Shown: positions 35,092-61,085 of the stretch, piece after piece
How positions within the stretch are numbered: the first letter of the stretch is position 1
How the letters are laid out: each line of letters begins with the position of its first letter
Program-made: the position numbers and the translations under genes
NCBI GenBank assembly: GCA_030583685.1
Contig: CP129470.1
Location: 810,754 to 874,753, forward strand
DNA: 64,000 bases
Source: Candidatus Dojkabacteria bacterium
Lineage (GTDB): Bacteria; Patescibacteriota; Dojkabacteria; GCA-002793355
Reading direction: 5' to 3'
Notes under the pieces: generated by a model
What the model was told of the DNA's origin: nothing
The model's input: only the letters and a program-made list of their open reading frames with translations
Databases searched by the model: none

Positions 35092-35124
35092 GTGTTCCTA
35101 ATAATACACGAAGTAATTCCCGCA

Positions 35125-35133
35125 TGCTATAAT
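35125..35133 (+). promoter_or_regulatory. extended -10 element (TGcTATAAT)
   Basis: Ends 6 nt before ATG 35140, implying a leaderless transcript for the small membrane ORF and probably recG. Confidence 0.4.
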
Positions 35134-35139
35134 GGTACT

Positions 35140-35337
35140 ATGAATTTGCCAATCAGCAAAGACCTAGCAAAGCCCTCCGCAAAGGAGCTTCGTCTACAAA
35201 AGGAGCGTCGATCACAACTTTTTCACCAAGTGATGAACGGATTAAAAAAAGGCATTGTGAAAACCTTTATCATTTTATTCGTCATCTCAGTAATTTTTTC
35301 CATGGTGGCAATCCCACTACTCTTGGTGTTTGGATAA
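35140..35337 (+). CDS. small tail-anchored membrane protein (65 aa)
   Basis: Basic N-terminus plus one C-terminal TM (VKTFIILFVISVIFSMVAIPLLLVFG). Start moved from 35092, which would abut the divergent PBP start, to ATG 35140 downstream of the -10 element. Confidence 0.4.
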   Translation: MNLPISKDLAKPSAKELRLQKERRSQLFHQVMNGLKKGIVKTFIILFVISVIFSMVAIPLLLVFG

Positions 35338-35340
35338 AGT

Positions 35341-37374
35341 ATGCAGCTTTCAGATGCGGTAGAAACAATTCCCGGTGTTGGAGCAAAGACGCAGCAGGTC
35401 TTCAATGGGGCGGGAATTTATTCGATTGGCGATTTATTACACTATCTTCCGACTGGTTATGAAGACAGCACCGAAATACTCTCTCTTGCGGAGGCCATAA
35501 AGCGAATTTCTCATCTTCCGTTATGGCAATTATCGCGTGAGAAATTCGCAATAAAAGGGAAACTTCGGAAGATATCAAGCTTTAAGACGAAACGCCGATT
35601 TGCGTTGACAACCGCACATATTGTAGACGAGCAAACGCAGGATACATTGCAAACGATTTGGTTTAATATGCCGTTCGTGACGACACAATTAAAAGTTGGA
35701 ACAGAGTATGTTTTTTTTGGAAAAGTGAAAAGAGAGAGTGCAGCGAGGTTTACGTTAAGCTCACCGCAATTTGAGGAGTATAATAGCGAGAAAACGTTGC
35801 AGCGATTAGGAAGAATTAGTCCCGTTTATCGAAGGATTAAAACACTTAAGTCTCCGGCTATTGCGCGAACAATTCGAGCAATTCTTCCCAAGCTTGAAGT
35901 TTCCGATTTTTTATCTGGAATTATCGATCAGCATGAATTTTCACCATTGACCGATGCGTATTGGAATATTCATTCACCTGCCAGCTTCATACAACTCAAT
36001 CAAGGAGTAAATCGCCTGAAACTACAGGAATTACTTGAATTACGAGATGAATTTGAAAAAAAGAAACAGGCGAGTACTCATGAACCATTCAAAATGGATG
36101 AGTTTGGAAAAAAGGTTCAAGAGCTCATTAACTCCTGGGTACCCCTCTTGCCGTTTACTCTCACCAAAGGGCAACAAGAAATCCTTGATGCATACATGCA
36201 AAAAGTTCAGCAAAAGTCTGCCGAAGATACTTTTCTATACGGTGATGTTGGAAGTGGCAAGACAATAATCGCACAACTAGTTGCACTCGCGTTTGCGGTC
36301 TTAGGTAAAAGCGCATTGATACTTGTTCCAACGACGATCCTGTCTCGACAGCACGCGTTATCGACAAAACAACTTATCGAACGACTACAGGGAGCTGCAC
36401 AAGTGAAGGTTGAGGAAGTTACTGCAACAAGAACCAAACGTACCCAATCGTTTCAGCCACACGTTATTTATATAGGAACTCAGGCGATCCTGTATCAATC
36501 TGAACTCATTGCACACCCCTTACTCGCATTTGTATGTATCGATGAACAACATCGCTTTGGGGTTGAGCAGAGGCTCCTGTTTCAGAGAGGGAATAGAAAC
36601 GTACTTACTTTGTCTGCTACTCCGATCCCGCGGACCTTGGCGTTGAGTTTCATGCAATTCACGGAAGCACTTTTTTTAGAGGAAAAACCTTACGGAAGGA
36701 AAGAAATCCTATCTCGAGTTGTGCCTCAGGATAAGCACGATAGTACCTACACGTGGATTGCGGAAAAAGTAAAGAAAGGGGAGCAAGCATATATTATTTT
36801 CCCTCGAATTACGTCCGAAGATGACGAAAAGAAATCACTCATCGAGATGTTTGAGATGTTATCTGACTCGTATTTTTCTGGTTGTCGCGTAGGGATGCTT
36901 CATGGAGGAATGAAACAATCAGAAAAAGAAAGCATTATGACATCATTTGCAGAAGGTAATCTTGACATACTTTGTGCGACTTCGGTGGTAGAAGTCGGTG
37001 TTGATGTCCCAAATGCGACAATAATTGCGATTCATGGAGCAGAGTACTTTGGTTTAGCACAATTGCACCAGCTACGAGGGAGAGTGGGAAGAAGCAACCA
37101 ACAGTCATATTGTTTTCTGATTCCCTCTCGATATGAAGATACAGTCATTGAGCGGTTGGAGTTCTTTACTTCACACCATAAGGGCAGTGATGTTGCGACA
37201 TATGATTTACAGCGACGTGGTGCGGGTAAACTCTTAGGAATCGATCAATCTGGTGTTACTGAACTGAAAATAGCCTCATTAGAGGAGTTATCGCTTATTG
37301 AACAAGCTATGCGAGTGTATTCATTGCTGAGAGAGAAGCATATTTCTGTTTTACCAATTATTAGGGTAAAATAG
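35341..37374 (+). CDS. recG: ATP-dependent DNA helicase RecG
   Basis: Wedge/OB N-terminal domain. Helicase motifs GDVGSGKT, DEQHRFGV, SATPIPRT and QLRGRVGR. Confidence 0.9.
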   Translation: MQLSDAVETIPGVGAKTQQVFNGAGIYSIGDLLHYLPTGYEDSTEILSLAEAIKRISHLPLWQLSREKFAIKGKLRKISSFKTKRRFALTTAHIVDEQTQDTLQTIWFNMPFVTTQLKVGTEYVFFGKVKRESAARFTLSSPQFEEYNSEKTLQRLGRISPVYRRIKTLKSPAIARTIRAILPKLEVSDFLSGIIDQHEFSPLTDAYWNIHSPASFIQLNQGVNRLKLQELLELRDEFEKKKQASTHEPFKMDEFGKKVQELINSWVPLLPFTLTKGQQEILDAYMQKVQQKSAEDTFLYGDVGSGKTIIAQLVALAFAVLGKSALILVPTTILSRQHALSTKQLIERLQGAAQVKVEEVTATRTKRTQSFQPHVIYIGTQAILYQSELIAHPLLAFVCIDEQHRFGVEQRLLFQRGNRNVLTLSATPIPRTLALSFMQFTEALFLEEKPYGRKEILSRVVPQDKHDSTYTWIAEKVKKGEQAYIIFPRITSEDDEKKSLIEMFEMLSDSYFSGCRVGMLHGGMKQSEKESIMTSFAEGNLDILCATSVVEVGVDVPNATIIAIHGAEYFGLAQLHQLRGRVGRSNQQSYCFLIPSRYEDTVIERLEFFTSHHKGSDVATYDLQRRGAGKLLGIDQSGVTELKIASLEELSLIEQAMRVYSLLREKHISVLPIIRVK

Positions 37375-37377
37375 TGT

Positions 37378-37878
37378 ATGACAGCGAAATTATCTTCGCT
37401 TGCCGAAGTTCAATCTCATCCTACTATCACTACCTGGTTGGTGGCGGTTGATGTTCGTTCTGCATACAATGTTGGGGCAATGTTTAGGACTGCTGATGGG
37501 ACAGGTTCAACAGGGATAATTCTTGCAGGTTATTCACCGACTCCAGAAAATCCAAAAGTAAACAAAACTGCGCTTGGTGCGGAATTCCACGTCCCTTGGT
37601 TTGTCGTGTCCGACCCAACTGAATTGTTTTCGAAAACGAGTTTTGCCCATATTGGCTTGGAAACAACGCAGAAGGCTCAAAATATCTTTACGTGGACCCC
37701 GACGAAACGAAAGCTTTTTCTGTATGTTGGAAATGAAGTAACGGGGCTCCCCCTCTCGGTGATGACGGGTTTAAAAGAATTTGTGCGTATTCCAATGGTT
37801 GGACTGAAGCAATCACTAAATGTTGCTGAAGCAGCAAGTATAGCGATGTACGAATTGTTCCGAAAAACCCAAGAGTAA
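37378..37878 (+). CDS. SpoU/TrmH-class RNA 2'-O-methyltransferase (TrmL-like size)
   Basis: SPOUT motifs: VAVDVRSAYNVGAMFRTADG, GNEVTGL, and SLNVAEAASIAMYEL. Confidence 0.7.
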   Translation: MTAKLSSLAEVQSHPTITTWLVAVDVRSAYNVGAMFRTADGTGSTGIILAGYSPTPENPKVNKTALGAEFHVPWFVVSDPTELFSKTSFAHIGLETTQKAQNIFTWTPTKRKLFLYVGNEVTGLPLSVMTGLKEFVRIPMVGLKQSLNVAEAASIAMYELFRKTQE

Positions 37879-37939
37879 ACACGATTTTCTGGCAAAGTGT
37901 TTTTTGTGTAAATAACAGTAATTTTTCATCGTTAACCTC

Positions 37940-37968
37940 TTTACAAATGCAAATGAATTGGTTATAAT
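37940..37968 (+). promoter_or_regulatory. promoter of the mraZ/dcw operon (TTTACA-17-TATAAT)
   Basis: -35 at 37940-37945 and -10 at 37963-37968. The ATG at 37977 lies 8 nt downstream of the -10. Confidence 0.5.
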
Positions 37969-37976
37969 GGTGAAGT

Positions 37977-38462
37977 ATGGTGAAAATTGGTGAAAGTACA
38001 AAACTTATCGGAGAGTACTCCGGTAAACTTGTCGCCGGTCACCGAGTTGCACTGCCCGTTGCACTCAGAAAATTACTGGGAAACTCATTTGTTATGACAA
38101 AAGGTTATGAGGGGTGCTTACTTATTGTTCCGTCGTCGTCGTGGGAAAGTCTTATCCAACCTATGGAGTCGAGATCGTTCCTAGATCGAAATGTTCGTGA
38201 CTCCCTTCGTTTTCTTGTCGGAAGCGCATTCGAAATTACTGCAGATGCCCAAGGACGAGTCGTAATCCCTGAGACCTTGAGAGCATACGCACAAACCCTC
38301 TATTCAGAACGTTCATCTTGTGAAGTTGTCTTTGTTGGATTGGTGAACTGGATTGAAGTCTGGGAAAAATCTCGTTGGTTAGAGCGAAACACTTTTCTTG
38401 AAGAAAATGCTGATGCAATTGCACAAGAATTAATATCTGTTAAAGAGTCTCAATCAGTATGA
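37977..38462 (+). CDS. mraZ: transcriptional regulator MraZ
   Basis: Two MraZ-type repeats (..GHRVALPVALRKLLG.. and ..DAQGRVVIPETLRAYA..) and its position as first gene of the dcw cluster. Confidence 0.8.
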   Translation: MVKIGESTKLIGEYSGKLVAGHRVALPVALRKLLGNSFVMTKGYEGCLLIVPSSSWESLIQPMESRSFLDRNVRDSLRFLVGSAFEITADAQGRVVIPETLRAYAQTLYSERSSCEVVFVGLVNWIEVWEKSRWLERNTFLEENADAIAQELISVKESQSV

Positions 38463-39424
38463 AATCCCAAACTGCCCCCAAAAAACTTTATCATCGACCT
38501 GTTTTGTTACAAGAAGTCATTGAAGAATTATCAGTAGTCCCTCCAAATGGATGGATTATCGATGGAACGTTTGGAGATGGAGGACATTCGCGCGCAATAT
38601 ACGAGAAAATTATCAAACCATATAAAAGAAATCGTCTTTGTAGTGTTGATTGGGATATGTCAGGATACTCTGCCTTACAATCGCATGAGATTGAATTGCC
38701 ATCGGTTCTTGACGAGGTGACAGAAAATACTGAATGGGTGATGGTATCGGATAATTTCGCGAATATGCGTAAGTATCTGCCAGTAGTCACAAAGAAAACC
38801 AATACAGAAATGGCACTCTCTGGATTGCTTCTCGATTTGGGAATTTCTTCTCGACAACTTGCGCAAAAAAAGAGGGGATTTAGTTTTCATGCTGAGGGGA
38901 AAGTCGATATGAGAATGGATCCTGAGCATTATGCTGTTGCCGCCTATGATTTATTGAATATTTTGCCTTACAAAAAAATGTCAGCGATGTTCCGCGATAC
39001 GGTTGGAATGCCACCAGGAATTGCTGCAAAATTGACCAAAGAGATTTTAATTGCACGAGAAGTAAAACTCTTTGGTAACTCTGACGATATAAACAGATTA
39101 ACGAATATTTCGCATAAAGTAGTACCGATTCGGGCTAGCTCGAAGGGGAGGATTCATCCTGCAACACTTCTGTTTTTGGCTTTGCGCATCTCTGTCAATA
39201 CAGAATTGCAAAACTTGCAGGAAGTCCTCCCGGTCGCTTTTTCTTATCTGATTCCTTCAGGTAGGTTGTTATTAATGACCTATCATAGTGGTGAAGAAAT
39301 GGTTGTGGAATCATTCGCCCGCCAAAATGGAATCAGAGTGGAAGTAATTCTTCCCGCTCCTCGGGAAGTGAGGGGGAATCCACGCGCACGAAGTGCAAAA
39401 TTATATATTATTACGAAAAAATGA
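38459..39424 (+). CDS. rsmH: 16S rRNA (cytosine1402-N4)-methyltransferase RsmH
   Basis: YHRPVLLQEVIEEL..DGTFGDGGHSRAI, and a 4-nt overlap with mraZ. Confidence 0.9.
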   Translation: MKSQTAPKKLYHRPVLLQEVIEELSVVPPNGWIIDGTFGDGGHSRAIYEKIIKPYKRNRLCSVDWDMSGYSALQSHEIELPSVLDEVTENTEWVMVSDNFANMRKYLPVVTKKTNTEMALSGLLLDLGISSRQLAQKKRGFSFHAEGKVDMRMDPEHYAVAAYDLLNILPYKKMSAMFRDTVGMPPGIAAKLTKEILIAREVKLFGNSDDINRLTNISHKVVPIRASSKGRIHPATLLFLALRISVNTELQNLQEVLPVAFSYLIPSGRLLLMTYHSGEEMVVESFARQNGIRVEVILPAPREVRGNPRARSAKLYIITKK

Positions 39425-39732
39425 AAAATTCACGACATAACCACGCAGTTGTACCAAATTTTGTTTTACGCATTGCTGTTCTTCTCACCTTTTTCACTAT
39501 AGCATTGCAATTTGTCGTGGTAACTCGATATGAGCCTGTAGCCAGCGCAATTGGCGTCATGGATCAACAATCAAGAATTTTGAATACCACCTACTTGGAT
39601 TATGAGGAACAGAATGCTATTCTTCGTTCAAGTAAGTTTTTGGTCAGCGAGAAGGCGTCAGGATTTGTTTCGACACCATCAAAAGTGTTGTACGTAAATC
39701 CTGGTAACACGCTCGTGAGTAGTAATGAATAA
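39421..39732 (+). CDS. FtsL-like cell-division protein (small bitopic)
   Basis: Single TM (IAVLLTFFTIALQFVVV) and its position between rsmH and ftsI. Confidence 0.4.
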   Translation: MKNSRHNHAVVPNFVLRIAVLLTFFTIALQFVVVTRYEPVASAIGVMDQQSRILNTTYLDYEEQNAILRSSKFLVSEKASGFVSTPSKVLYVNPGNTLVSSNE

Positions 39733-41464
39733 AAAACTTGAAAAGAAAGTATCCCACAGCTTGTCAACGAAAGAATATATTTGGATGGCAATTGTCTTTT
39801 TGTTTTTTGGACTTCTTTATTTTCAATTTCGGTGGCAAATTCTCGAGTACGATCGATTTTCTGCTCTTGCAAATGCTCAATTGGCAGTAAGACAAGACGT
39901 ATTTACCAAGAGGGGAACGATTTATACCCAAGATGGTGTTGTTCTTGCAGTTGATAGTCCGGCGTGGAACGTTGTTCTCTCTGTAACCAATCACGTCGAT
40001 CAAGCAAATTTTCTTGTGAAGCAAGATGAAATTTTGTCAGAATTAGCTTCGGTGTTAGACATTGATGCAGAAGAAATGAGTGAAATCTACAATCCAAACG
40101 TACTTACGTATCAGGTGTTATATCGCGGTATCAATAAGAGACAGAAAGATATTTTAGAAGAGAAAAAGCTACTGGGAATATACACAGAAGATTCAATAAA
40201 ACGGTTGTACCCGAACGGCGATTTGTTTTCTCACGTCATCGGGTATATTGGGACAGATAGTTTTGGGCGACCGCGGGGAAATTATGGTATCGAGGGCTTC
40301 TTCTGGGGTGATATTAAGGGAAAGGAAGGTGCGACGCAACAAGAGAAAGATTTAAGTGGCAAGGCAATTATCAGTAAACAGTATAGAAATGTTCAGTTTC
40401 GTGAAGGGAAAAATATTGTGCTCACCGTTAATTCTGGGATTCAAAAGAAGGTGGAACAAATTCTTGAGAGCGGTGTGCGTGAGCAACGTGCAGATGCCGG
40501 AAGTGTGGTCATTATGAATCCGAAAACTGGAGAGATTATCGCAATGGCAAATTATCCTGACTACGATCCAAATGAATTTTGGAAGGTTCGTGATGTTTCT
40601 GTGTTTCGTAACGGCGCGGTTTCTGGTCCTTACGAATATGGATCAGTGCAAAAACCGCTGACGGTTGCAATGGCCTTAGAAGAGCAAAAAATAACCGAGA
40701 AGCATATTTGTAATGATACTGGTCGGTTAAAACTTGATGACAAGACCATTTACAACTTTAACTTCGCGCGATATGGAAGAATTACTCCTATGCAAACCCT
40801 TCAATATTCGGACAATATCTGTGCGGCAGAGTATGGACTATTAGTTGGGGCGGATCGTATGTATGCATATTTACGAGAATTAGGGCTCGGTGTTTCGACG
40901 GGAATTGGTATTCACGAAGAAGAAACAAGTTTTATTAAAGCACCTGACCGTTGGTTGAGCATCGATGTCGCAACAACGTCCTATGGACAGGCAATTTCAG
41001 CAACTCCTCTGCAATTTGCTTCAGCCATGTCCACGTTGGCAAATGGTGGCGTAAGAATGCAACCAATGTTAGTAAAAAAAATATATAACAATGAAGATGA
41101 GATTACGATTACTCCAACAAGTGTGGGGAGAGTGTTTTCAGAAAAAACTGCAACTATGGTTGCAAAAATGATGGAAGAGGCCACCTTTACTCGTGCTGAT
41201 ATGGCTCGTTATAAAGGTGTCTACAGTATTGCAGGTAAGACAGGAACAGCTCAGGTTGCGCGTTCTGACACTGCTGGGTATTATGATGACCGGGTAAATG
41301 TAACCTATGTTGGTTTTGCACCAGCAATTGATGCTCGATTTGTGATGGTAGTAAAAATTGAAAATCCAAAAGAGGGGACGTTAGCAAACTTAACGGTACT
41401 TCCCCTATGGATGAAAATCTTTGATACAATTAAAGACGATCTTGGTGTACCAAGAATTAACTAA
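39725..41464 (+). CDS. ftsI: class B penicillin-binding protein / peptidoglycan transpeptidase (FtsI-like)
   Basis: N-terminal TM and dimerisation domain. GSVQKP (SxxK), YSDN (SxN) and GKTGTAQ (KTG). Confidence 0.85.
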   Translation: MNKKLEKKVSHSLSTKEYIWMAIVFLFFGLLYFQFRWQILEYDRFSALANAQLAVRQDVFTKRGTIYTQDGVVLAVDSPAWNVVLSVTNHVDQANFLVKQDEILSELASVLDIDAEEMSEIYNPNVLTYQVLYRGINKRQKDILEEKKLLGIYTEDSIKRLYPNGDLFSHVIGYIGTDSFGRPRGNYGIEGFFWGDIKGKEGATQQEKDLSGKAIISKQYRNVQFREGKNIVLTVNSGIQKKVEQILESGVREQRADAGSVVIMNPKTGEIIAMANYPDYDPNEFWKVRDVSVFRNGAVSGPYEYGSVQKPLTVAMALEEQKITEKHICNDTGRLKLDDKTIYNFNFARYGRITPMQTLQYSDNICAAEYGLLVGADRMYAYLRELGLGVSTGIGIHEEETSFIKAPDRWLSIDVATTSYGQAISATPLQFASAMSTLANGGVRMQPMLVKKIYNNEDEITITPTSVGRVFSEKTATMVAKMMEEATFTRADMARYKGVYSIAGKTGTAQVARSDTAGYYDDRVNVTYVGFAPAIDARFVMVVKIENPKEGTLANLTVLPLWMKIFDTIKDDLGVPRIN

Positions 41465-41475
41465 CTACAAAATAA

Positions 41476-42525
41476 ATGATTACTGCAATTTCTTTCTTTA
41501 TGGTTAAGGAACTCGCTGTTTGGGCGATGATAGGTCTTGTGGCGGCTGCCCTCTGGGTCGTTCCACTTATTGACTTTTTGTATCGGTTTCAATTTACCAT
41601 CAAACATATAGAAATGCCCAGCAAAATTAATGCGGAATGGATGAAAATTCACGGTAAAGACTCGGGAACTCCTAGCCTTGGTGGTATTTTAATTTGGCTC
41701 ACAATTCCGTTTCTACTCCTTGTTGGTTTTTGGGAAGTTCCGTTGATGAAGGCTGTCTCATTTATATACTTGTTAGTCGGTGCGTATGGATTTTTGGATG
41801 GTTTAAGTGATGTGTTAACTAAGAATAATGTTAAATTTCGGGAGTTTCAGAATAAATTCGAGTGGAGAGTCGGCAAGTTTATCATTGCAATGGCTATAAA
41901 TGTTATTGTTGCGTTGATTATTGTAAAAATCGCGGGAATACAGCAGATAGATGTCTTTGGCTTCAACCTTGTCTTGAATTCTCTCGTTGGGATTCTGATA
42001 CTCACCTTGGCATCAACGTTCTTTACGTATGCGACAGAGATTATTGATGGAATCGATGGTTTATCATCTGGGATGTTTCTCATTACGATTGTAGGCTTTA
42101 CTCTTTTGATGCTTGCGTTTCCTGCAAGTTATTTTACTTCAGGTGAGTCAACAGCCGCCGTTATTGCAGGCGTTATGATGGGCGTACTTATGGTTTACCT
42201 TTATTTCAATATTCCGCCTGCACGTATTTATATGGGTGCACCAGGAGCAATGCCCATGGGGCCAGTTTTTTTGCTTTTAGGATTATATGGTAACGTGCTC
42301 CCTGCGCTGATTGTATTGATGTTACCTTACTTTGTCGATTTAGCTACGAGTTTTATCCAACTTTGGTCAATTCGCTTTTTTGGGAAGAAGGTATTCAAAA
42401 TCGCACCTATTCATCATCACTTTGAGGCAATTGGTTGGCCAGGAACGAAAGTGGTTATGAGATTCTGGTTATTTAATGTCGGAATTATCTTGCTTGCTGT
42501 ACTTGCACAAGTGTATTTCGGATAG
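41476..42525 (+). CDS. mraY: phospho-N-acetylmuramoyl-pentapeptide transferase
   Basis: IDGIDGLSSGM, IYMGAPGAMPMG and APIHHHFE. Ten TM segments. Confidence 0.9.
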   Translation: MITAISFFMVKELAVWAMIGLVAAALWVVPLIDFLYRFQFTIKHIEMPSKINAEWMKIHGKDSGTPSLGGILIWLTIPFLLLVGFWEVPLMKAVSFIYLLVGAYGFLDGLSDVLTKNNVKFREFQNKFEWRVGKFIIAMAINVIVALIIVKIAGIQQIDVFGFNLVLNSLVGILILTLASTFFTYATEIIDGIDGLSSGMFLITIVGFTLLMLAFPASYFTSGESTAAVIAGVMMGVLMVYLYFNIPPARIYMGAPGAMPMGPVFLLLGLYGNVLPALIVLMLPYFVDLATSFIQLWSIRFFGKKVFKIAPIHHHFEAIGWPGTKVVMRFWLFNVGIILLAVLAQVYFG

Positions 42526-42566
42526 GTGCTGTTGCGAAATATGCGGAAATACCATAGAATAGTTAC

Positions 42567-43577
42567 ATGCCCATGCTACGTCGTAAACAGATACCAAACC
42601 GTCTTAATGTTCGCAAGAAAAGAATTAGTATCTCGCCAAAGATTCAAAAAGTTATTGGGAGAGGAAGCCTACTTCTCCTCAGTGTGAGTATACTTGCGTT
42701 TTTTGCAGTTTCTGGTTGGGGTGCAATTTCAAAAGCAATAAATGAGTCATATCGTCCAGGAGTAGCAAAATTTTCTGCGTGTTCACCCTTATTTCTTCAA
42801 GTCAAAACAAAACCACTTTATGGGGTTATTCTTCGTACGGAAGGTTCATTTGTCAAGGATATTTTTTTAACCTCACCTACGACAACGGGCTCAGTCAAAG
42901 CAATTAGACTGACCAGCTCAGATTGGGTACCAGTATATTTCTCAAAAAACTTTACCTTCACTCAAATCGGAGAAATATTACGATTAAGCCGATTAGAAAC
43001 AGGTGATTATGATCCTTGTTATGTTATTGAACAGCTCTCACTCACAAGCGGTGTTCCTGTTGAGTATATTCTCATCGATGATTCCGAGAAGGGCTTGCAG
43101 ACAACGGTGACCATCGCGGAAGCACAGGAATTACTCCGAGGAATTGAGCAAAATACACCATTACAATTGAGAACAAACCTACTCGGATTAAGAAAGTTAG
43201 ACGACGGAACCGAAGTATCTGTGATTACCTATGAAGCATTTCGAGAACAATACCCTGACTTCTTCAAAATCGATGAGATCGCTCAGGAGCAGGCATTCGT
43301 TGAAGTTTATAATGCAACTGATATCTCTGGGTATGCAAGTATAGTTTCACGAAAATGGGCGATGTTAGGGATTGATATTTCTCGGATTGGCAATGCAACA
43401 TACGAAGAAGTAGGGGATGCACTTGCGGTGATGTACGTTCGTGATAGTTTGGCGTACTCACGAACTCAAGCGATCATCAAGAGTTCTTTTCCCAACGGAA
43501 AACTAGTTGTTAAGGAGGGGAGACCAAGTAATTTAGTGACAACCGGGGATATTGTAGTATTCTTGATTAAACGGTAG
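42567..43577 (+). CDS. membrane-anchored protein with a LytR_C-like C-terminal domain
   Basis: N-terminal TM. The C-terminus (VEVYNATDISGYASIVSRKWAMLGIDISRIGNATYE) resembles the LytR_C (LCP-associated) domain. Confidence 0.35.
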   Translation: MPMLRRKQIPNRLNVRKKRISISPKIQKVIGRGSLLLLSVSILAFFAVSGWGAISKAINESYRPGVAKFSACSPLFLQVKTKPLYGVILRTEGSFVKDIFLTSPTTTGSVKAIRLTSSDWVPVYFSKNFTFTQIGEILRLSRLETGDYDPCYVIEQLSLTSGVPVEYILIDDSEKGLQTTVTIAEAQELLRGIEQNTPLQLRTNLLGLRKLDDGTEVSVITYEAFREQYPDFFKIDEIAQEQAFVEVYNATDISGYASIVSRKWAMLGIDISRIGNATYEEVGDALAVMYVRDSLAYSRTQAIIKSSFPNGKLVVKEGRPSNLVTTGDIVVFLIKR

Positions 43578-43586
43578 AATGGAGAG

Positions 43587-46007
43587 ATGAATACGCCCCT
43601 TGTTATTTTCCTAATTGCTCTTGGCATTGTCTTTTTTCTGTTTCTCCTCATTATGCTCTGGCCAAGGAAGAGAAACACCGATGCTTTCCCTGTCGGGACA
43701 GAAGAAACGTTACAAGGAAATACGAAAGTTATTCTCAAAATAGAGGTCCCCCGAAATAACGATAAAACACCGCTTGCGGCAGAGCAATTATTTGCCTCAC
43801 TTCATGGTCTGTACAAGGATGGAGCAAGAATTCCGATTCTAAGCCTAGAGTTGGCGTCCAATTCACGCATGGGGGTTCAATTTTATGTTGTTGTTCACAG
43901 TGCGGTTGCCTCATTTGTCAAAGGTCAAATATATGCGCAGTATCCTGCTGCAGAGATTGGAGTTGTCTCTGATTACATGGATACCGCAGAAACCTGGGAT
44001 CAATCTACACAAGTCTCTGCTGGTGAAATTGTGCTCGAAAGAGAGCATATTTTTCCATTGAAAACGTTCAAAGATTTTGATGTTGATCCTTTGTCAGGAA
44101 TAACAGGAGCAATTAGCGAACTCAAAGGTGACGAAGAGGCTTGGTTGCAAATGGTTATTCGACCATACCCAAATATTTGGCAAAAAGTTTCACAGAAATA
44201 TATTTCTGCTTTACGAGCGGAAGGAAGCAGTATTTTCGAAGCAAACGGTTTTTGGAAAGCATTTTGGTCGGTTTTTGCAGGATTCTTCAGATTCTTTGCT
44301 GATTCGTTAACCTATGATCCAGATAAACCGCAGCAAGTAAAAGTTCCTTCAGTTCGCTTAGAGCCGTACCAAGAGGAAGAAATCAAAAGAGTAGAAGCAA
44401 AAGCGGAAAAACAAGGGTTTCAAGTTGTTATACGAGTTCTTTCTAAGAGTCGTGACTCAGCGCGTGCTGCTCAGATTTTTGAAGGAATTGCTGCATCCTT
44501 TCGGCAGTATGCAACGGCACACTTGAATGCGTTTTCGCTGAATCTGTCGAAACAACCTGCTACGGTTTTTACACAAATGAAGGCGCGATATATGTCCCAA
44601 TTACACGAAGAGATATTGAATATTGAAGAAATTGCGTCTTTATATCACTTACCAAATACAGCAGGTGAAGCGACCTCGTTGTTTGTGACAACCGCAGGGA
44701 AGTTACCTCCACCCGTAGATTTACCCATTGGCGAAGGTACGTTGTTCGCTCGTACAAACTATCGCGGAGAAAGTCATGAATTTGGCATACTCCCGCGTGA
44801 TAAGCGACGTCACGCATATATAATCGGTCGTACAGGAACAGGAAAGACAAGTCTTATGCGAAATATGATTGTCTCTGACATCATGGCAGGCGAAGGTGTT
44901 GGGTTAATTGACCCGCATGGTGAGACTGCCGAATTTATTCTTGATCATATACCTGCGCACCGTGTTGAGGATGTTATTTATTTTAATCCCGGAGATATTG
45001 AGTATCCAGTTGGTTTCAATCCGATTTATGTGAAGGACAAGTCACAGCGAGATTTAATTGCAGACAATATTATTGGCGTCTTCAAAAAATATTTTGATTC
45101 GTGGGGACCACGGTTAGAATATATTTTATACAACACCATCCTTTCGGCGTTAGACTCACAAGGTACGACATTACTTTCGGTACAGCGGATGCTTACTGAC
45201 ACAGAATATAGAAAGCGTGTTCTATCGCATGTGAAAGACCCAATGATTCACCGATTTTGGCGTGAAGAATTCAGTATGATTGAGGAAAATCGCAAACTGC
45301 TGTCTGATGCGGTTGCACCAATTCAGAACAAAATTGGGCGCTACTTGTCACCAAGAATTGTCAGAAACATTTTGGGCCAAACCAAATCAACCTTTAATAT
45401 TCGCGAAATGATTGATAGTAAGAAAATTTTCATTGCAAATCTTTCCAAAGGTAGAATTGGCGAAGAAAATACCGCGTTACTTGGTGGCTTGCTCATTGCA
45501 CGAATTTATACCGCAGCAATGGAGCGCGCTGATCAACCTGACGAAGAACGAACAGACTTTTCACTGTACATTGATGAGGTTCAGAGCTTTACGACTGATG
45601 CCTTTGTCAATATTTTGTCTGAAGCACGAAAGTATCGACTCTCCTTGGTAATTAACCATCAATTCACTGAGCAGTTGCCACCCAATATGCGAGCAGGAAT
45701 TTTTGGAAATGTAGGAACGATGATCACCTTTAGTGTCAGCCAGAAAGATGCAGTCGAATTGTCTCAAGAATTTGCCCCTTACGTAACACCAGAAGATATT
45801 CTTTCACTTCCCAATTATCATATCTATTTAAGAATGATTATTAAGGATAGGATTTCTGAACCTTTCAGTGCCGTTTCACTACCGTTTCGTTTCCAAAGCT
45901 TTGGTTATAAAGACATCATTAAGCAGAAATCACGTGAGAAGTATGCTGTTCCCCGAGAAGTGATAGAAGAAAAGATCCAGAGGTGGGTAGAGAATAAGGG
46001 GGAGTGA
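43587..46007 (+). CDS. VirD4/TraG/TrwB-like type IV coupling-protein-family ATPase (FtsK-HerA superfamily), membrane-anchored
   Basis: N-terminal TM (VIFLIALGIVFFLFLLIMLW). Walker A HAYIIGRTGTGKTSLMRNM followed by LIDPHGE (T4CP-like DPxGE). Walker B LYIDEVQSF. RKYRLSLVINHQFTEQL (TrwB-like). Confidence 0.6.
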   Translation: MNTPLVIFLIALGIVFFLFLLIMLWPRKRNTDAFPVGTEETLQGNTKVILKIEVPRNNDKTPLAAEQLFASLHGLYKDGARIPILSLELASNSRMGVQFYVVVHSAVASFVKGQIYAQYPAAEIGVVSDYMDTAETWDQSTQVSAGEIVLEREHIFPLKTFKDFDVDPLSGITGAISELKGDEEAWLQMVIRPYPNIWQKVSQKYISALRAEGSSIFEANGFWKAFWSVFAGFFRFFADSLTYDPDKPQQVKVPSVRLEPYQEEEIKRVEAKAEKQGFQVVIRVLSKSRDSARAAQIFEGIAASFRQYATAHLNAFSLNLSKQPATVFTQMKARYMSQLHEEILNIEEIASLYHLPNTAGEATSLFVTTAGKLPPPVDLPIGEGTLFARTNYRGESHEFGILPRDKRRHAYIIGRTGTGKTSLMRNMIVSDIMAGEGVGLIDPHGETAEFILDHIPAHRVEDVIYFNPGDIEYPVGFNPIYVKDKSQRDLIADNIIGVFKKYFDSWGPRLEYILYNTILSALDSQGTTLLSVQRMLTDTEYRKRVLSHVKDPMIHRFWREEFSMIEENRKLLSDAVAPIQNKIGRYLSPRIVRNILGQTKSTFNIREMIDSKKIFIANLSKGRIGEENTALLGGLLIARIYTAAMERADQPDEERTDFSLYIDEVQSFTTDAFVNILSEARKYRLSLVINHQFTEQLPPNMRAGIFGNVGTMITFSVSQKDAVELSQEFAPYVTPEDILSLPNYHIYLRMIIKDRISEPFSAVSLPFRFQSFGYKDIIKQKSREKYAVPREVIEEKIQRWVENKGE

Positions 46008-46008
46008 A

Positions 46009-47955
46009 TTAGTAATTCCCTTGAGCATCTCTTAAGGATATAGGAATGCCTCTTTCTCTAAGTATTGCTTGTATGGTTGTTGCCGTTACTCCATTTTTCC
46101 TCAGAGTTGTAATAATTTCTGCTACCCCTGGCGCAGGAGCCGGGGCCGCTTGAGGTGGCGTTTGCGGTGGTTGTCGTGGGGGCGTGGTTCCCGTAGTGGC
46201 ATCCACTTTTAATACAGGGACTTTCGTTGAAACCATACGCGAATGTTGTAATGAAAAATCGTTACTCTTTAATCGACGAGCCATTACGCCAACGAATTTG
46301 TCTACACGTGAACCAGTCCATGCGTTGGAATCACCTGCATTACTTCGCAGCATCTCTTGAGCTACTCCGTTAAGTAAGGATGTCGCGGTCTCTATAAATT
46401 CCAAAAAATTAGCAATATCTGCCATAGAATTCTGCGTGTTGTTGAGGAACGAATTCTCCAAAAAGTGTATGATTTGTTGATCAATATTCTTTTTAAATTC
46501 TCGTAAGAAGACTACAGGGGTATTCTTAGCGTTTTGCTTTGGTGCTTGTATCGCTTCATCAATAATCTCATCTAAAAAAAGAATCGCTCTGTTGTAAGTT
46601 GATAGATTATTCTCTATTTGATTTAGTTTCTCTGATAATCTTCCACTCTTATCACCTATAAACTCAAGAAAATTAATTCTCTGTTTATTCCTCTTCTCTT
46701 GTTTTGTAAACAAAGTAATAGAGTACGGTCGAGTGAGTCTAACTATACGTTTCGCTCCCATTCTTGTTACGAATTCCTTTAACGTATATTTAACGTCATC
46801 AATTCCTGGAACAAGTGTTCCTCTCCAAAACTTGTTTTGAACGGATACTCTTTCATTTTGATAGTCTACTAGTTCATTGAAAATTATTCGAAATCTATTC
46901 TGTAATTTCAAGAAGAAGTTATGGTCTTCAAAGCGTGGGTCATACTTGTAGAGAGTCATTTTTAAACGAAGTAGCTGTAAGGAAGTAAAAAAGGTTTGAA
47001 TGTCGATATTCATAAGACTAAGGGCCTCATAGATGTTGGCGCTTGGTCTGAGATAGGTGTATTCGGCAATATTCATTACCATTCGCATGAGTGGACCTTT
47101 CTTCTTCTTTACCTCGTTGTACCAGGCAAAAGCCCGTTCATATTGTCTTGCATGATCTCCATCTTTTCTTTGAACTGCTGTAATCTTTTTGTCAATTGTT
47201 ATATTGTAATGACCATGTTTGTCAGTAGCGTCTGCTGTCCTTCGCGTAAAGTTATAAACTCCTAATGCCTTTGTCGGGTTATTCGGGGCATGAGCTTTTG
47301 CAATAAAAGCGGCCGTCATATCGATAAGGTTCAGGTTTTTAGGGATACTTTGGTGCGGTTTATAAGAAAATGGATTTCCCTCTTCAGGTACCACTCTGAG
47401 AGAATTATCGGCATTTCTATTTTGCTTTTTTGCGGCTTCAAATAAAGTGTCTATAAACTTTCCAATATCTTCAGGCCGAGTATCTCTTCTCGAAATTAGT
47501 CGATTAAACCTAGCAAGAGTACCAGAATCGTTTGCAATCACCAATGCGATTGGGAGAACTCCAAATTGATAAAGAAATGCAGACTTATCTGTTTCCCATG
47601 ATCCTGTTCGATATTCTATTTTAAAAAATTTAAATTTTTCTGCAATAAGGGGAATTGATTGTGGAGGGCGACGTTCATTACGTCGAGCTGAAAATTCAAT
47701 ATGTTCCAATACTTCGTATAAATATCGAGGAAATACTGTCGCTTTTTCAAACCCTACTGAGAGGTTTGTTAACAATTTATGTACCTCTGGATTTGTTTGT
47801 GCCAAATTATCCACCATTCTCACAATGCTGCTTGTCCTCAAAGAATTTTCTTGAGAGGCATCCTTAGAGGTAGTTTGAAAAAGTAATTTAACAATCGGAG
47901 CTGTTACGTGTAGTTCATTTCGATTCTGAGTTTCGTGTAGATAAGTGTGAGCCAT
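46009..47955 (-). CDS. large hypothetical protein (648 aa) with a Pro-rich linker and a C-terminal helix-hairpin-helix (SAP/Rho-N-like) motif
   Basis: No family recognised. Internal ..RTADATDKHGHYNITI.. (D..HxH..N, loosely relaxase/HUH-like). C-terminal PPRQPPQTPPQAAPAPAPG followed by VAEIITTLRKNGVTATTIQAILRERGIP. Confidence 0.5.
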   Translation of the reverse strand: MAHTYLHETQNRNELHVTAPIVKLLFQTTSKDASQENSLRTSSIVRMVDNLAQTNPEVHKLLTNLSVGFEKATVFPRYLYEVLEHIEFSARRNERRPPQSIPLIAEKFKFFKIEYRTGSWETDKSAFLYQFGVLPIALVIANDSGTLARFNRLISRRDTRPEDIGKFIDTLFEAAKKQNRNADNSLRVVPEEGNPFSYKPHQSIPKNLNLIDMTAAFIAKAHAPNNPTKALGVYNFTRRTADATDKHGHYNITIDKKITAVQRKDGDHARQYERAFAWYNEVKKKKGPLMRMVMNIAEYTYLRPSANIYEALSLMNIDIQTFFTSLQLLRLKMTLYKYDPRFEDHNFFLKLQNRFRIIFNELVDYQNERVSVQNKFWRGTLVPGIDDVKYTLKEFVTRMGAKRIVRLTRPYSITLFTKQEKRNKQRINFLEFIGDKSGRLSEKLNQIENNLSTYNRAILFLDEIIDEAIQAPKQNAKNTPVVFLREFKKNIDQQIIHFLENSFLNNTQNSMADIANFLEFIETATSLLNGVAQEMLRSNAGDSNAWTGSRVDKFVGVMARRLKSNDFSLQHSRMVSTKVPVLKVDATTGTTPPRQPPQTPPQAAPAPAPGVAEIITTLRKNGVTATTIQAILRERGIPISLRDAQGNY

Positions 47956-48020
47956 TGTGAAGGTATTATATCATTTTTACCGAAAATTTTACAGAGCAAC
48001 GCATTCAGGTATAATCCCCT

Positions 48021-48794
48021 ATGGCAGGACATTCTCATTGGCACAATATTCAACAAGCCAAAGGCAAAGCAGACGCAAAACGGGGTATTTTATTTACCAA
48101 GGCCGCACAACAAGTTATATTGGCGGCTCGAGAGGGTGGTGGCGACCCAAACCACAATTTATCACTTCGCATTGCCATTGACTACGCGAAATCGGTTAAT
48201 ATGCCAAAGGAAAATATAGAGCGTGCAATTAAAAAGGGAACAGGAGAGGATTCTTCATCACAACTCGAAAAAGTCGTTTACGAGGGGTATGGGCCACTCA
48301 AAATTCCGTTTATTGTATCAGCTATCACCGATAACAAAAACCGAACGGTAAATGAGTTGCGAAATATTTTTTCGAAGGCGGGTGGTGAACTGGGGTCGAT
48401 TGGCTCTGTCCTCTGGCAGTTTACGGAATCAGGCAGAATCACCGTAAAGGCAACCAAGATTGTTCCGTCAGAAAAGTTCGGAGAAGCTGATAAAGAAGTT
48501 TCGTGTGACGTTGATGAGGTAATGCTTACCTTGATGGAGATAACGAACATTGTTGATATCGAGAAGAATGAACATGAAGAGGGAGTCATTTATGTCTATA
48601 CCGCGACGAACCTGTTGGCACAGGTCAGTCAGGCAATTCGGGAGGTCGGTTATCAAGTCATTGCGTCGGAACACCATTTTGAGGCGAATACTCCAAAGGA
48701 AGTGACTGAAAAGGAGCGAGAGACGGTACAGAATTTTCTTGACACACTTGAAGAACACCAAGATGTTCAATCAGTTTGGCATAGTGCGCGATGA
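48021..48794 (+). CDS. yebC: YebC/PmpR-family transcriptional regulator
   Basis: MAGHSHWHNIQQAKGKADAKRG.. Confidence 0.9.
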   Translation: MAGHSHWHNIQQAKGKADAKRGILFTKAAQQVILAAREGGGDPNHNLSLRIAIDYAKSVNMPKENIERAIKKGTGEDSSSQLEKVVYEGYGPLKIPFIVSAITDNKNRTVNELRNIFSKAGGELGSIGSVLWQFTESGRITVKATKIVPSEKFGEADKEVSCDVDEVMLTLMEITNIVDIEKNEHEEGVIYVYTATNLLAQVSQAIREVGYQVIASEHHFEANTPKEVTEKERETVQNFLDTLEEHQDVQSVWHSAR

Positions 48795-49270
48795 TTGTTC
48801 TTGGGTTAGATCCTGGTATTGATCGATTAGGCTGGGCATTTTTAAAAGATTCCGAAGAAGGGATTGCGTTATTGCATTACGGCTTAATCACAACAGAGAA
48901 AACGAAGGATTCCGTTTTTCGACTTGGAGAGATTGCTTCAGATTTGAATCAGCTTATCGTAACTCATTCACCTGATTGTATGTGTATCGAGCATATTTTC
49001 TTTTCCAAGAATGTAAAAACAGCGATGACCATTGCAGAAGTCCGAGGTGTGTTGAAAGTTATTGCGTCACAACATTTGTTGGAGGTACGCGAAATACACC
49101 CGATGCAATTGAAAAAAAAACTCGTTGGCTCGGGGAAGGCAAGTAAAAAAGAAATGCAACTCGTCATGAAGAACCTTTTTGGTCTCGTGAACGACTTCAA
49201 AACAGATGATGTTGCCGATGCTATTGCGATTGGCTATGTTGGATTACTTGAAGCAATTGGTCAATTGTAG
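48791..49270 (+). CDS. ruvC: Holliday-junction resolvase RuvC
   Basis: VLGLDPGIDRLGWAF.., ..DAADAIAIG.. and a 4-nt overlap with yebC. Confidence 0.85.
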   Translation: MIVLGLDPGIDRLGWAFLKDSEEGIALLHYGLITTEKTKDSVFRLGEIASDLNQLIVTHSPDCMCIEHIFFSKNVKTAMTIAEVRGVLKVIASQHLLEVREIHPMQLKKKLVGSGKASKKEMQLVMKNLFGLVNDFKTDDVADAIAIGYVGLLEAIGQL

Positions 49271-58630: not shown

Positions 58631-59158
58631 ATGACCCAAGAAGAATTAGCAGAATTCTACGATGCACATATTGAAAAAATATATAGATTCTTCTTTTACA
58701 AAGTCGCTAACAGAGTCATTGCTGAGGATTTAACCAGCCAAACCTTTTTGCAATTCGTAAAAGCACTAAAAAAGCAGGAGTTTGAGAATACAAAAGCATA
58801 CCTGTACGGAATAGCCAAATTCGTTCTCCTAGATTACCTTCGTCAGAAGTATAAGCGGGTAGAAATCCCCTTAGATGATGAAATTGATTATTCTGTAGAA
58901 ATGGGGGTACAGCATCTTGATGTCTTTACTTTACTTGAGAAATTTCTTCCACAGTTGCCTAAAAAGCAACAGGAGATTCTAACCCTTCGCTTTATCGAAA
59001 AAAATAGCGTGAGTGAAACTGCAAAGAGAATCGGGAGAGACGTAAACTATGTGAGCACAACCCAAAAAAGAGCATTTCATTCACTTCGAAAGTTGCTCGA
59101 CTGTACAGATGCTTCGACTAATATTACAGAGGAACAAACAGATGAAACAGAAACATAG
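58631..59158 (+). CDS. ECF-type RNA polymerase sigma factor
   Basis: Region 2 (..FFYKVANRVIAEDLTSQTFLQF..) and region 4 HTH (..QQEILTLRFIEKNSVSETAKRIGRDVNYV..). Confidence 0.75.
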   Translation: MTQEELAEFYDAHIEKIYRFFFYKVANRVIAEDLTSQTFLQFVKALKKQEFENTKAYLYGIAKFVLLDYLRQKYKRVEIPLDDEIDYSVEMGVQHLDVFTLLEKFLPQLPKKQQEILTLRFIEKNSVSETAKRIGRDVNYVSTTQKRAFHSLRKLLDCTDASTNITEEQTDETET

Positions 59159-61085
59159 AAAATCTCCTTCACCAGAAACTGGTATTGAAGAGATTCAACA
59201 ACTCATTCGGGAAGCTGCAGCTCCGCGAGGAAAGTTTGTTACTGCATTAAAAAGGCAGGTACTTTCTGGAACTACTGAAAACCCTCGAACTAATTTAATG
59301 TCCCACTTCATGAAAAAACTATCCCCGAAATTCATGAAAATTGGTGGAATCGCAGTTGCTACTGTTCTTGTTGCAGGAACAGTCACGCTTGCGTACCTCA
59401 CTCAACCAGTTTCTCTTGCGAATCAGCAAGAGATTTTACGTAAAATAGCACTGGCGAACGAGAATCGTACTCAGGATTCTCGGGCTGAGACGATGAGTTC
59501 TGAAAAGAAAATGGACGCAGCCTTAACGATGATGCTCGCAGAAAAAGACTATAATTTTCGTACAGCAAAGACTACGTATTCTTACGGTGTAGCTGCAAAT
59601 TCATGTGCTGCAATGGTACCCTATGAGGGCGTTGTCACGAGCGAAGAAGTGAAAGAATTTTACTCCAACAAGAAGGAGCCTCAGGCAAAGTATTCAAGTT
59701 ACGCAACCTATGTTAGTGGTGACGTGTTTGAGTATCATCTCTTAGCTGAAAATGTTGAATGGGAATATCGAGGTGGCTCATATGCGGTTCGTTTACTTAA
59801 TGTTCCACGAATGTATCTCTTGGAGGCTTCGATAAAAATGACTGATACAGGGAACGAAAGTGAAGGTACTGACGTCGTTACCGAAGTACCCGTTATTGAC
59901 GAGGAAACTTCAGAAGAAATTCCTCCAATGGAAAATGAGAACCCAAATCAAGCACCTGAAATGCCAGGAGAAATTCTTCCCTCTGAAGAACCTCCTGTTG
60001 CACCAGAGCCTACGGTTGAACCAATCGATCCAATAAAGGAGCGGTTTGGCGAAAATGCAAAACTTCTTGGCCAAACAACCAGCAACGGGAGAAAGGCATA
60101 CAAAATAGAATGGTCTTATCAAGGATATTGCGCTTTTCCTGAGGGCCCTGCAGGTGACACGGTTGTTTCCTCAGAAGGAGACACCAAAATTGTGATCGTT
60201 GCTCTTGCAGACAGTGAGACGTTCGAGATTTTTAGTGAATCCTTCTATAAAGGGACAACTGCGACAAGAAATCACATTTTCACTCGAGAAGTCTCCGAAG
60301 TGAAACAAGACGGTGTCTCTGAAAACGCAGTAAAACAGCAGTTCCAATTCCCATTTCAGGTTGAAACCAGGGATGTTGATTATGCAAAAACAAATTATGA
60401 GCAAGCATATCGACAAGGGGTATTTGCTGAATTACGGAAAAAAGGGGGCAATGTGGTCACGCTTTCCGAAGGATTTACCTTCCAGTCGATAAATATCCCT
60501 AATATCACAGTTATTGTTGAAACTGAGAAGCATCGGTATGATCGAAACTTCTACTCTCCCGCAGCATATGGAACAAAGGCGTTTACTAATATGACACGAG
60601 TACACTCAAGTTCCAATAAGGGTGCTCAAGCGTCAGTAATACTTTCTTACGAAGGAAAAAAGTCACCGCTATCTTGGATTACCTTGTATAATTATGCAGG
60701 ACAACCATCTCTATCTGACATTGCGCTTGGCTTGGGGTATGACAATGCTTTTTCGGAAATTGGCACGGCGACCGTACAAATTTCAGGTAACTCTGTTACG
60801 GGTTCGGTGTACTCACTGACTGCGGGTGGTCGAAACCCAGGGGGGAGTGCTGAAGACCAAAAACTACCACGAGAAGAAATTCAAGCGACAAGAGATATTC
60901 TTGCTGTTTTTAGCGTAGAAGGAAATACCATTGTGGTGCAATCTCATTTGCCAGCAACAACACAGGCTGCTGATGTTTCAAAATGGCTGAAATTCCAAGT
61001 AGTTTCAGTAAGTGATCAGACTGCACTTGATAAGGCGTTTCCGCCAGTTGAAGCAGGTGGGATTCCAGAATTATATGCTCGCTAG
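59142..61085 (+). CDS. putative anti-sigma factor with a large extracytoplasmic domain
   Basis: Overlaps the sigma gene by 17 nt. Short cytoplasmic N-terminus, a single TM (IGGIAVATVLVAGTVTLAYL), an acidic Pro/Glu-rich linker, and a roughly 350-aa beta-rich C-terminal domain. Confidence 0.5.
   Translation: MKQKHRKSPSPETGIEEIQQLIREAAAPRGKFVTALKRQVLSGTTENPRTNLMSHFMKKLSPKFMKIGGIAVATVLVAGTVTLAYLTQPVSLANQQEILRKIALANENRTQDSRAETMSSEKKMDAALTMMLAEKDYNFRTAKTTYSYGVAANSCAAMVPYEGVVTSEEVKEFYSNKKEPQAKYSSYATYVSGDVFEYHLLAENVEWEYRGGSYAVRLLNVPRMYLLEASIKMTDTGNESEGTDVVTEVPVIDEETSEEIPPMENENPNQAPEMPGEILPSEEPPVAPEPTVEPIDPIKERFGENAKLLGQTTSNGRKAYKIEWSYQGYCAFPEGPAGDTVVSSEGDTKIVIVALADSETFEIFSESFYKGTTATRNHIFTREVSEVKQDGVSENAVKQQFQFPFQVETRDVDYAKTNYEQAYRQGVFAELRKKGGNVVTLSEGFTFQSINIPNITVIVETEKHRYDRNFYSPAAYGTKAFTNMTRVHSSSNKGAQASVILSYEGKKSPLSWITLYNYAGQPSLSDIALGLGYDNAFSEIGTATVQISGNSVTGSVYSLTAGGRNPGGSAEDQKLPREEIQATRDILAVFSVEGNTIVVQSHLPATTQAADVSKWLKFQVVSVSDQTALDKAFPPVEAGGIPELYAR

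Follow-up and report, generated by a model that had tools for sequence, protein, structure and literature searches.

A 64,000-nucleotide stretch of the Candidatus Dojkabacteria genome (GenBank assembly GCA_030583685.1, contig CP129470.1, positions 810,754 to 874,753; hereafter the window, in whose numbering coordinates are given unless another contig is named) was analyzed around two genes. One encodes an 806-amino-acid (aa) ATPase resembling type IV coupling proteins (T4CPs), and the other, convergent with it, a 648-aa orphan protein. The pair is probably best understood as two separate things lying side by side, a vertically inherited T4CP-like ATPase and a swappable, strain-specific orphan cassette. 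A first-pass annotation had described three open reading frames (ORFs) downstream of a dcw run of mraZ, rsmH, ftsL, ftsI and mraY, with the third of these ORFs in convergent orientation. The coordinates and orientation were confirmed, with 1 nt separating the stop codons of the two convergent genes, and the genes of the dcw run were matched. The run stops at mraY, and murD, ftsW and murG were not found among the ORFs of at least 150 aa that were scanned with Pfam across the 64-kb window. The features of the locus are as follows.

37977..42525, plus strand: mraZ, rsmH, a 103-aa ftsL-like ORF, ftsI and mraY, a truncated dcw fragment (Pfam and NCBIfam matches)
42567..43577, plus strand: LytR_C-like bitopic membrane protein, 336 aa (ORF, transmembrane prediction and Pfam matches of orthologues)
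43587..46007, plus strand: DUF8128-type coupling-protein-like ATPase, 806 aa (Pfam, PHROG and AlphaFold2)
44826..44849, plus strand: Walker A (GRTGTGKT, aa 414-421), with G414, G417, G419 and K420 invariant in a 19-sequence alignment
45561..45578, plus strand: Walker B (SLYIDE, aa 659-664), with D663 and E664 invariant in the same alignment
46006..48003, no strand: variable cassette slot, the sole segment not common to near-identical strains
46009..47955, minus strand: 648-aa orphan, denoted family C (ORF; relatives only in the same slot)
47965..47973, minus strand: extended -10-like element (TGATATAAT), candidate promoter of the 648-aa gene (read from the sequence)
47988..48015, plus strand: promoter-like site of yebC (TTTACA-16-TATAAT; promoter scan)
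48021..49270, plus strand: yebC and ruvC, conserved downstream neighbors forming the right edge of the slot (Pfam, synteny)

Profile matches, an alignment of homologues and a structural model established the family to which the ATPase belongs, its domain architecture and its fold class. The motifs quoted in the first-pass annotation are present in the translation: Walker A (GRTGTGKTS) is followed by GLIDPHGE, and Walker B (LYIDEVQSF) by ARKYRLSLVINHQFTEQL. The protein scored 32.5 bits with the Pfam family TrwB_AAD_bind (PF10412; cut-off 20.5) and 26.7 bits, just above the cut-off of 23.2, with DUF87 (PF01935). DUF8128 (PF26449) is placed at the N-terminus of an identical database protein in precomputed annotation, and this domain is strongly conserved in the homologue alignment. 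A single, strongly hydrophobic transmembrane helix (aa 5-23), followed by RKRN, precedes the alpha/beta DUF8128 domain (~aa 40-355) and the P-loop domain (~aa 385-770). The AlphaFold2 (AF2) model built on the homologue alignment had a predicted local distance difference test score (pLDDT) of 79.9 and revealed an insertion of seven helices (aa 485-610) that separates strands 463-466 and 614-618. With a profile of 19 homologues TrwB was the closest solved sequence (E 9e-6) and DotL the next. In Foldseek comparisons R388 VirB4 aligned with the model over its full length at a TM-score of 0.30; the TrwB alignment covered the 400 C-terminal residues and had a TM-score of 0.66. There was no Pfam match in the protein to FtsK_SpoIIIE or to an FtsK-type or winged-helix domain, and NurA is not a neighbor of the gene.

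Like the VirD4/TrwB T4CPs (PF10412, PF02534; in monoderms, those of the MPF-FATA mating-pair-formation class), the ATPase combines an N-terminal membrane anchor with TrwB-like motifs (GxxGxGKS/T…DPxGE; DE…RK…Q), and its helical insertion occupies the position of their all-alpha domain. Comparable insertions occur in VirB4 and DptH, however, so that this feature does not discriminate. VirD4/TrwB proteins usually have two transmembrane helices whereas the window protein has one, and the latter bears an extra cytoplasmic domain, the ~315-aa DUF8128, between anchor and ATPase domain. It also differs from them in being chromosomal and vertically inherited with an operon partner of the LytR-CpsA-Psr (LCP)/LytR_C type, and in having no gene for a type IV secretion system (T4SS) or a relaxase within 64 kb. 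Profiles favored TrwB over the C-terminal ATPase domains of VirB4 and DptH (DndH): NCBIfam VirB4 models matched only at the P-loop and far below their cut-offs, and the gene has no defense-system neighbors.

Full-length homologues of the ATPase occur on mobile elements. PHROG 5156 matched aa 84-797 (E 2.4e-80), and gp156 of Bacillus phage G was aligned by Foldseek over the full length (E 6e-46). Searches with tblastn returned 33 phage records, comprising SPO1 gp27.4 and relatives, and 348 plasmid records that include Streptomyces, Bacillus, haloarchaea and Sulfolobus. The homology of SPO1 gp27.4 and PHROG 5156, phage G gp156 and the 'DUF87 domain-containing proteins' of Bacillus plasmids extends through the N-terminal domain. 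The ATPase was 29% identical over 697 aa (BLASTP, E 3e-82) to an annotated T4CP of a plasmid from Embleya (Streptomycetaceae), the gene for which lies among genes for PrgI, a VirB4-like ATPase, Replic_Relax and NlpC/P60 proteins. Together with the TrwB match, this bore out the first-pass description of the protein as coupling-protein-like. These phage and plasmid homologues indicate that the ATPase, as judged by its sequence, belongs to a genuine subfamily of coupling proteins that is carried by monoderm and archaeal elements and marked by DUF8128.

The pairing of the ATPase gene with a Replic_Relax gene recurs on a Bacillus licheniformis plasmid and in SPO1 (gp27.4/gp27.3). In the Bacillus and Embleya plasmids and SPO1 the DUF8128-type ATPase is always followed directly by Replic_Relax (PF13814; L098:1-3560, L099:6584-10102 and L100:4743-8280), which suggests that the two constitute an unrecognized relaxase/T4CP pair of mobile elements. 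On the Bacillus and Embleya plasmids the ATPase gene is embedded among conjugation genes. Most plasmids with a homologue of the ATPase were called 'non-mobilizable' by MOB-suite. Searches of the literature on DUF8128, and on 'replication-relaxation' with coupling protein, found nothing useful. In contrast to these PHROG 5156-type copies, the window ATPase gene has no downstream Replic_Relax partner, and the gene at its 3′ end is convergent and without a Pfam match.

In the Patescibacteria, the ATPase is a chromosomal, vertically inherited core gene. A degenerate-pattern scan of species-representative genomes detected relatives in at least 589 of them, among Dojkabacteria, Berkelbacteria and other Patescibacteria. 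Gene order was compared in 77 loci, of which 68 had an upstream ORF and 76 were scored downstream. A LytR_C-like gene lies directly upstream of the ATPase gene in 39 of the 68, and yebC directly downstream in 28 of the 76 and no more than four ORFs away in 45. The main clade of Dojkabacteria (46-49% ATPase identity) has the order dnaB – Zn-ribbon – lgt-like – (lspA) – rluD – LytR_C-like – ATPase – yebC – ruvC – ruvA – ruvB, in which the gene names come from inspection of the translations, apart from the families covered by Pfam scans. In that clade the block has no dcw genes near it; only where ATPase identity is at least 63%, in a single clade, do mraZ…mraY directly or nearly directly precede the LytR_C-like gene. 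The LytR_C–ATPase–yebC–ruvC block is kept across Dojkabacteria down to 46% identity with dnaB…rluD upstream, and therefore predates its adjacency to mraY; the earlier view that these genes had been inserted into the dcw cluster is thereby not supported. In a relative with 65% identity an enolase gene on the opposite strand separates mraY from the LytR_C-like gene (L093:5653-6942), so that the mraY/LytR_C junction is itself a point of rearrangement.

The ATPase is under extreme purifying selection, with ratios of nonsynonymous to synonymous divergence (dN/dS) of 0.003-0.04. The lower value was obtained between loci L007 and L089, where synonymous divergence (dS) was 0.70 and the proteins were 99.8% identical, and the higher between the window and the near-identical strain L001.

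The 336-aa protein encoded upstream has a basic N-terminal tail, a transmembrane segment (aa 36-54) and an extracytoplasmic LytR_C-like domain. The LytR_C call of the first-pass annotation falls below threshold in the window copy (19.7 bits, cut-off 22.2) and is upheld by 21 of the 22 orthologues, with a best E of 1.5e-11. A single one of the 22 also matched LytR_cpsA_psr, the LCP catalytic domain, and the protein is possibly a degenerate LCP. Only 9 nt separate its gene from the ATPase start, and the two are therefore probably co-transcribed.

In Berkelbacteria-type and other loci of the candidate phyla radiation (CPR), the DUF8128 ATPase is present as two tandem paralogues of ~840 and 900-1050 aa with secDF downstream (L061, L068-L075 and L079-L085; for example, L085:3541-10985). 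Between the paralogues lie a small conserved protein, c13, with the motif HPVPPNYASKS, and often a Sigma70_r4+HARE-HTH protein. Judged from the gene order, the tandem ATPases with these two proteins could be a conserved four-gene module; both the c13 protein and the Sigma70_r4+HARE-HTH protein are absent from the window.

Four contigs with a near-identical ATPase (two aa differences) matched the window in blastn at 99.2% nucleotide identity from 33587 to 46005 and again from 48004, and between these points 3.5 kb with minus-strand genes for 682-aa and 414-aa proteins replaces the 648-aa gene. The 648-aa protein has no similarity to the 682-aa or 414-aa protein by BLASTP or hhalign. The left junction falls inside the ATPase stop codon (TGA vs TAG) and the right junction 17 nt before the yebC ATG. 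The TATAAT box is retained, such that the -10 of the yebC promoter-like site lies in the conserved flank and its -35 in the variable segment. The slot extends from the ATPase stop codon to the yebC promoter, measures 2-3.5 kb, is found only in one genus-level clade and holds one or two minus-strand genes of at least two unrelated orphan families. Among relatives with 79-86% ATPase identity the occupants vary, with six different protein sets:

735 aa
660 + 399 aa
650 + 399 aa
471 + 128 aa
844 aa (L092)
739 aa (L095)

The slot is empty, with yebC directly after the ATPase gene, in relatives with 75% and 63-65% ATPase identity, and likewise in most of the main Dojkabacteria clade. All-against-all BLASTP grouped the 682-, 735-, 660-, 650- and 471-aa proteins as family A. 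The 414- and 399-aa proteins form family B, a paralogue of family A with an N-terminal domain in common. Family C consists of the 648-aa protein of the window with the 844-aa (E 2e-13) and 739-aa proteins. Comparison of family C with families A and B by hhalign gave no homology. PADLOC, PHROG and Pfam gave no match to the cassette proteins of any of the three families, and a word-indexed protein search started from the family A alignment retrieved nothing but that family itself.

Allelic replacement, restricted distribution and horizontal exchange of the cassette are each directly evident. Between L007:10520-12472 and L089:8598-10550 the family A gene has a dS of 0.10, whereas every flanking gene has a dS of 0.7-0.9; the cassette has therefore moved recently between lineages. 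Families A and B have a dN/dS of ~0.1, that is, they are under purifying selection and are therefore functional genes. The exact 648-aa allele is present on three further contigs. One contig, L088, is 2,058 bp in length and consists of the cassette and exactly 30 nt of each conserved flank, a pattern that corresponds to branch points of the assembly graph at both junctions and hence to co-existence of alleles in that sample. A further allele, L101, is 98.9% identical to the 648-aa allele and comes from a sample (SRR33280778) with an accession adjacent to that of a sample yielding the 682+414 allele. The two alleles differ by 18 nonsynonymous changes and one synonymous change, and by a T6→T7 homopolymer frameshift in L101 (L101:1042-1048; window ~46981-46986, minus strand) that may reflect decay, phase variation or an error of assembly. 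The ratio of nonsynonymous to synonymous polymorphism (pN/pS) is ~5 on these 19 differences (binomial p ~0.06 vs neutrality). The 648-aa gene thus is under diversifying or relaxed selection, clearly unlike its flanks, and purifying selection on it is not seen. A diversity-generating retroelement was considered as the source of the 19 differences and rejected, as the changes are scattered and not adenine-specific.

In each of L092:8424-8427 and L095:4597-4600 the convergent family C gene and the ATPase gene have 4 nt in common at the 3′ end of the latter. With this overlap, and the 1-nt spacing in the window, transcription from the cassette into the ATPase gene is likely. The slot resembles hypervariable islets, such as capsule and O-antigen loci and flexible genomic islands, in that its flanks are conserved, its junctions fall sharply at gene boundaries, its alleles within one species are non-homologous and the cassette dS is far below that of the flanks. 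It differs in being tiny, with one or two genes, in its lineage-restricted orphans and in its setting in a reduced CPR genome.

The 648-aa protein was confirmed as an orphan. It had no match in Pfam, NCBIfam, PADLOC or PHROG, including relaxase profiles; tblastn against phages and plasmids gave no match; a word-indexed protein search found nothing; and the family C profile gave only noise against the PDB. Exhaustive HMMER searching of 1.84 billion representatives returned nothing besides the 844-aa slot protein and a fragment of the query, so that the only relatives of the 648-aa protein are the 844-aa and 739-aa proteins of the same slot. The protein is basic (isoelectric point 9.8), contains no Cys and is predicted to be mostly helical, with no predicted transmembrane helix or signal peptide. 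The AF2 model of the protein alone had a pLDDT of 39.7, too low for a fold search, and the family's three members are too few for a deeper alignment. Values >70 were confined to a two-helix hairpin at aa 611-634, within the last ~40 residues.

Three features had been singled out in this protein by the first-pass annotation. The Pro-rich linker (aa 586-609) and a C-terminal helical hairpin are indeed present, and the proposed likeness of the tail to SAP is unproven: the isolated tail scored E 0.14 and 12.2 bits, below the cut-off of 23.9. The HGH segment (aa 247-249), which had been likened to a relaxase, aligns with DGS and EGT in the two homologues, and as only the Gly is kept it is not a relaxase-type His motif. 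The extended -10-like element TGATATAAT, which the two-hexamer promoter scan did not detect, lies 9 nt upstream of the ATG, and this spacing suggests that the 648-aa gene may have its own promoter and a near-leaderless mRNA.

The preferred explanation treats ATPase and cassette separately. The ATPase is proposed to form a membrane-anchored hexameric ring that would pass a macromolecule, either DNA or protein, to a membrane channel at the expense of ATP. The channel would most probably be the CPR chromosomal T4SS encoded elsewhere in the genome, or the ATPase would fulfil an exapted variant of that role. The subfamily has lost its conjugation context in Dojkabacteria and other CPR and is fixed there in the core genome with its LCP/LytR_C partner, the ATPase presumably acting together with this envelope protein. 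Lineages would exchange whole cassettes through homologous recombination within the conserved flanks, which is plausible given that natural competence has been reported for Saccharibacteria. Considering the fast evolution of the cassette genes and that the 648-aa allele does not show purifying selection, an arms-race gene in host or phage interaction would fit the cassette best.

Several points weigh against this explanation. No T4SS gene lies within 64 kb, and the coupling of the ATPase to a T4SS is inferred. In Southlakia the T4SS is reported to be essential and the T4CP homologue not. The close operon linkage of the ATPase to an extracytoplasmic LytR_C protein could signify an envelope role independent of secretion, and a functional link between ATPase and cassette may lie behind their adjacency in all occupied slots. 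The pN/pS value derives from 19 differences only and one allele is frameshifted, so that relaxed constraint or decay of the 648-aa gene may also be compatible with the data.

The locus had originally been interpreted as a minimal DNA-mobilization module, in which the ATPase would be the coupling protein and the 648-aa protein an atypical relaxase or DNA-binding partner, within a decayed integrative element located after mraY. The two-gene layout does exist, as the same ATPase subfamily is directly followed by Replic_Relax on real mobile elements, and the 648-aa protein has the basic character and small C-terminal hairpin that such a partner might have. Yet its gene is convergent with that of the ATPase rather than co-directional, the protein matches neither Replic_Relax nor any relaxase and its HGH is not conserved. 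Strains with 99% identical flanks carry unrelated genes in its place and sister lineages lack it altogether, which removes it as a dedicated partner. The ATPase itself is lineage-wide and strongly constrained, which is at odds with a decaying element. The searches for traces of integration were negative throughout: no flanking direct or inverted repeats or terminators around the region rose above chance, no tRNA adjoins the ATPase and cassette, no integrase was matched among the scanned ORFs, and no break in composition marks the region. VirB4/B6/B8-type genes were likewise absent from the scanned ORFs (which include every ORF >400 aa), as had been remarked in the first-pass annotation, and there was no match to PrgI or a relaxase. 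The module is thus already largely refuted and must be regarded as highly improbable. A further reading is a housekeeping translocase for chromosome segregation or division, of the FtsK/SpoIIIE or HerA kind and positioned with the dcw genes and the yebC-ruvCAB recombination operon; an FtsK/SpoIIIE or HerA match with lineage-wide synteny had been named at the outset as pointing to segregation. That synteny was found: yebC-ruvC-ruvA-ruvB accompany the gene throughout the lineage and mraZ…mraY do so in this clade. Purifying selection is moreover very strong, and the DUF87 score is just above the cut-off. The protein, however, is not FtsK/SpoIIIE and probably not HerA proper: it lacks the FtsK_SpoIIIE match, has a single transmembrane helix, neither an FtsK-type nor a winged-helix Pfam domain and no NurA neighbor, and its full-length homologues reside in conjugation clusters and phages. 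The dcw adjacency is also clade-specific, and a segregation or division role is quite improbable.

A closer relation between ATPase and cassette is envisaged if the cassette proteins are strain-specific effectors that the adjoining ATPase recruits through their C-terminal tails and delivers to a host bacterium, their diversity reflecting host specificity. In all occupied slots the cassette adjoins the ATPase gene at its 3′ end, with a spacing of 1 nt in the window and a 4-nt overlap in L092 and L095. The 648-aa protein is without a Sec signal or transmembrane helices, and evolution of the cassette is fast or diversifying. By eye, families A and C end in a low-complexity linker and one or more short helical hairpins reminiscent of C-terminal T4SS signals, and in one cultivated CPR bacterium the T4SS is reported to be essential for epibiotic growth. 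Nevertheless, the similarity of the A and C tails has no statistical support (16.9 bits, E 2.9; hhalign probability <2%), some family A members are devoid of such a tail (L007_660), family A contains weakly hydrophobic and possibly membrane-spanning segments, and most ATPase-bearing genomes have no cassette. Effectors of this type are therefore considered unlikely. A fuller version, in which the slot is a polymorphic effector locus whose linker-and-hairpin proteins are delivered into the host by the DUF8128 ATPase via the CPR T4SS, is quite unlikely; if it were true, recombinational cassette swaps would change host range or permit escape from host immunity. Thus, a conserved ATPase beside an independently exchanged cassette remains the explanation that we favor.

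Orphan T4CP-like ATPases of Patescibacteria have been described before. According to one report, 5,713 VirD4-like T4CP homologues occur in 2,918 CPR genomes, only 148 of them near virB4 and none with a relaxase, and were considered 'possibly exapted' (Quiñonero-Coronel et al., 2025; 10.1101/2025.01.22.634366). The window ATPase likewise is located away from virB4 and without a relaxase, and the approximately two orphan T4CPs per genome given there fit the tandem paralogues of the Berkelbacteria-type loci. The family of the window ATPase presumably corresponds to these reported orphans, a correspondence at the level of the family and not of protein-by-protein comparison. Neither the DUF8128 architecture nor the LytR_C–ATPase–yebC–ruvC synteny, the Replic_Relax pairing or the variable slot is mentioned in the retrieved passages of that report. 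What is new here is the synteny, the mobile-element homologues and the cassette swapping; the orphan ATPases are already known, and the findings do not establish a new kind of system.

The CPR/Patescibacteria rely on other bacteria, and their T4SS proved essential in the single system where this was examined. The role of the orphan coupling proteins can now be approached from a DUF8128 subfamily common to Gram-positive and archaeal plasmids and SPO1-like phages, from its pairing with Replic_Relax on mobile elements and from its status in Dojkabacteria as a core gene in an LCP/LytR_C operon under extreme purifying selection. The cassette slot provides a clean, small case of allele swapping in a reduced genome and is a candidate marker for strain-level interaction with host or phage.

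Elsewhere in the window other genes were noted. A GmrSD-type (DUF262/DUF1524) restriction endonuclease gene at 6815-8581 represents a defense gene in a reduced genome. A 658-aa ORF without a Pfam family (59109-61085, plus strand) adjoins a gene for a 665-aa right-handed beta-helix protein (61306-63303, minus strand). A probable surface-protein run on the minus strand at 19010-22229 comprises three proteins, namely a 551-aa protein with a weak cohesin-domain match, a 208-aa protein that belongs to no family and one of 313 aa that carries Big_6 / Glucodextran_B Ig-like domains.

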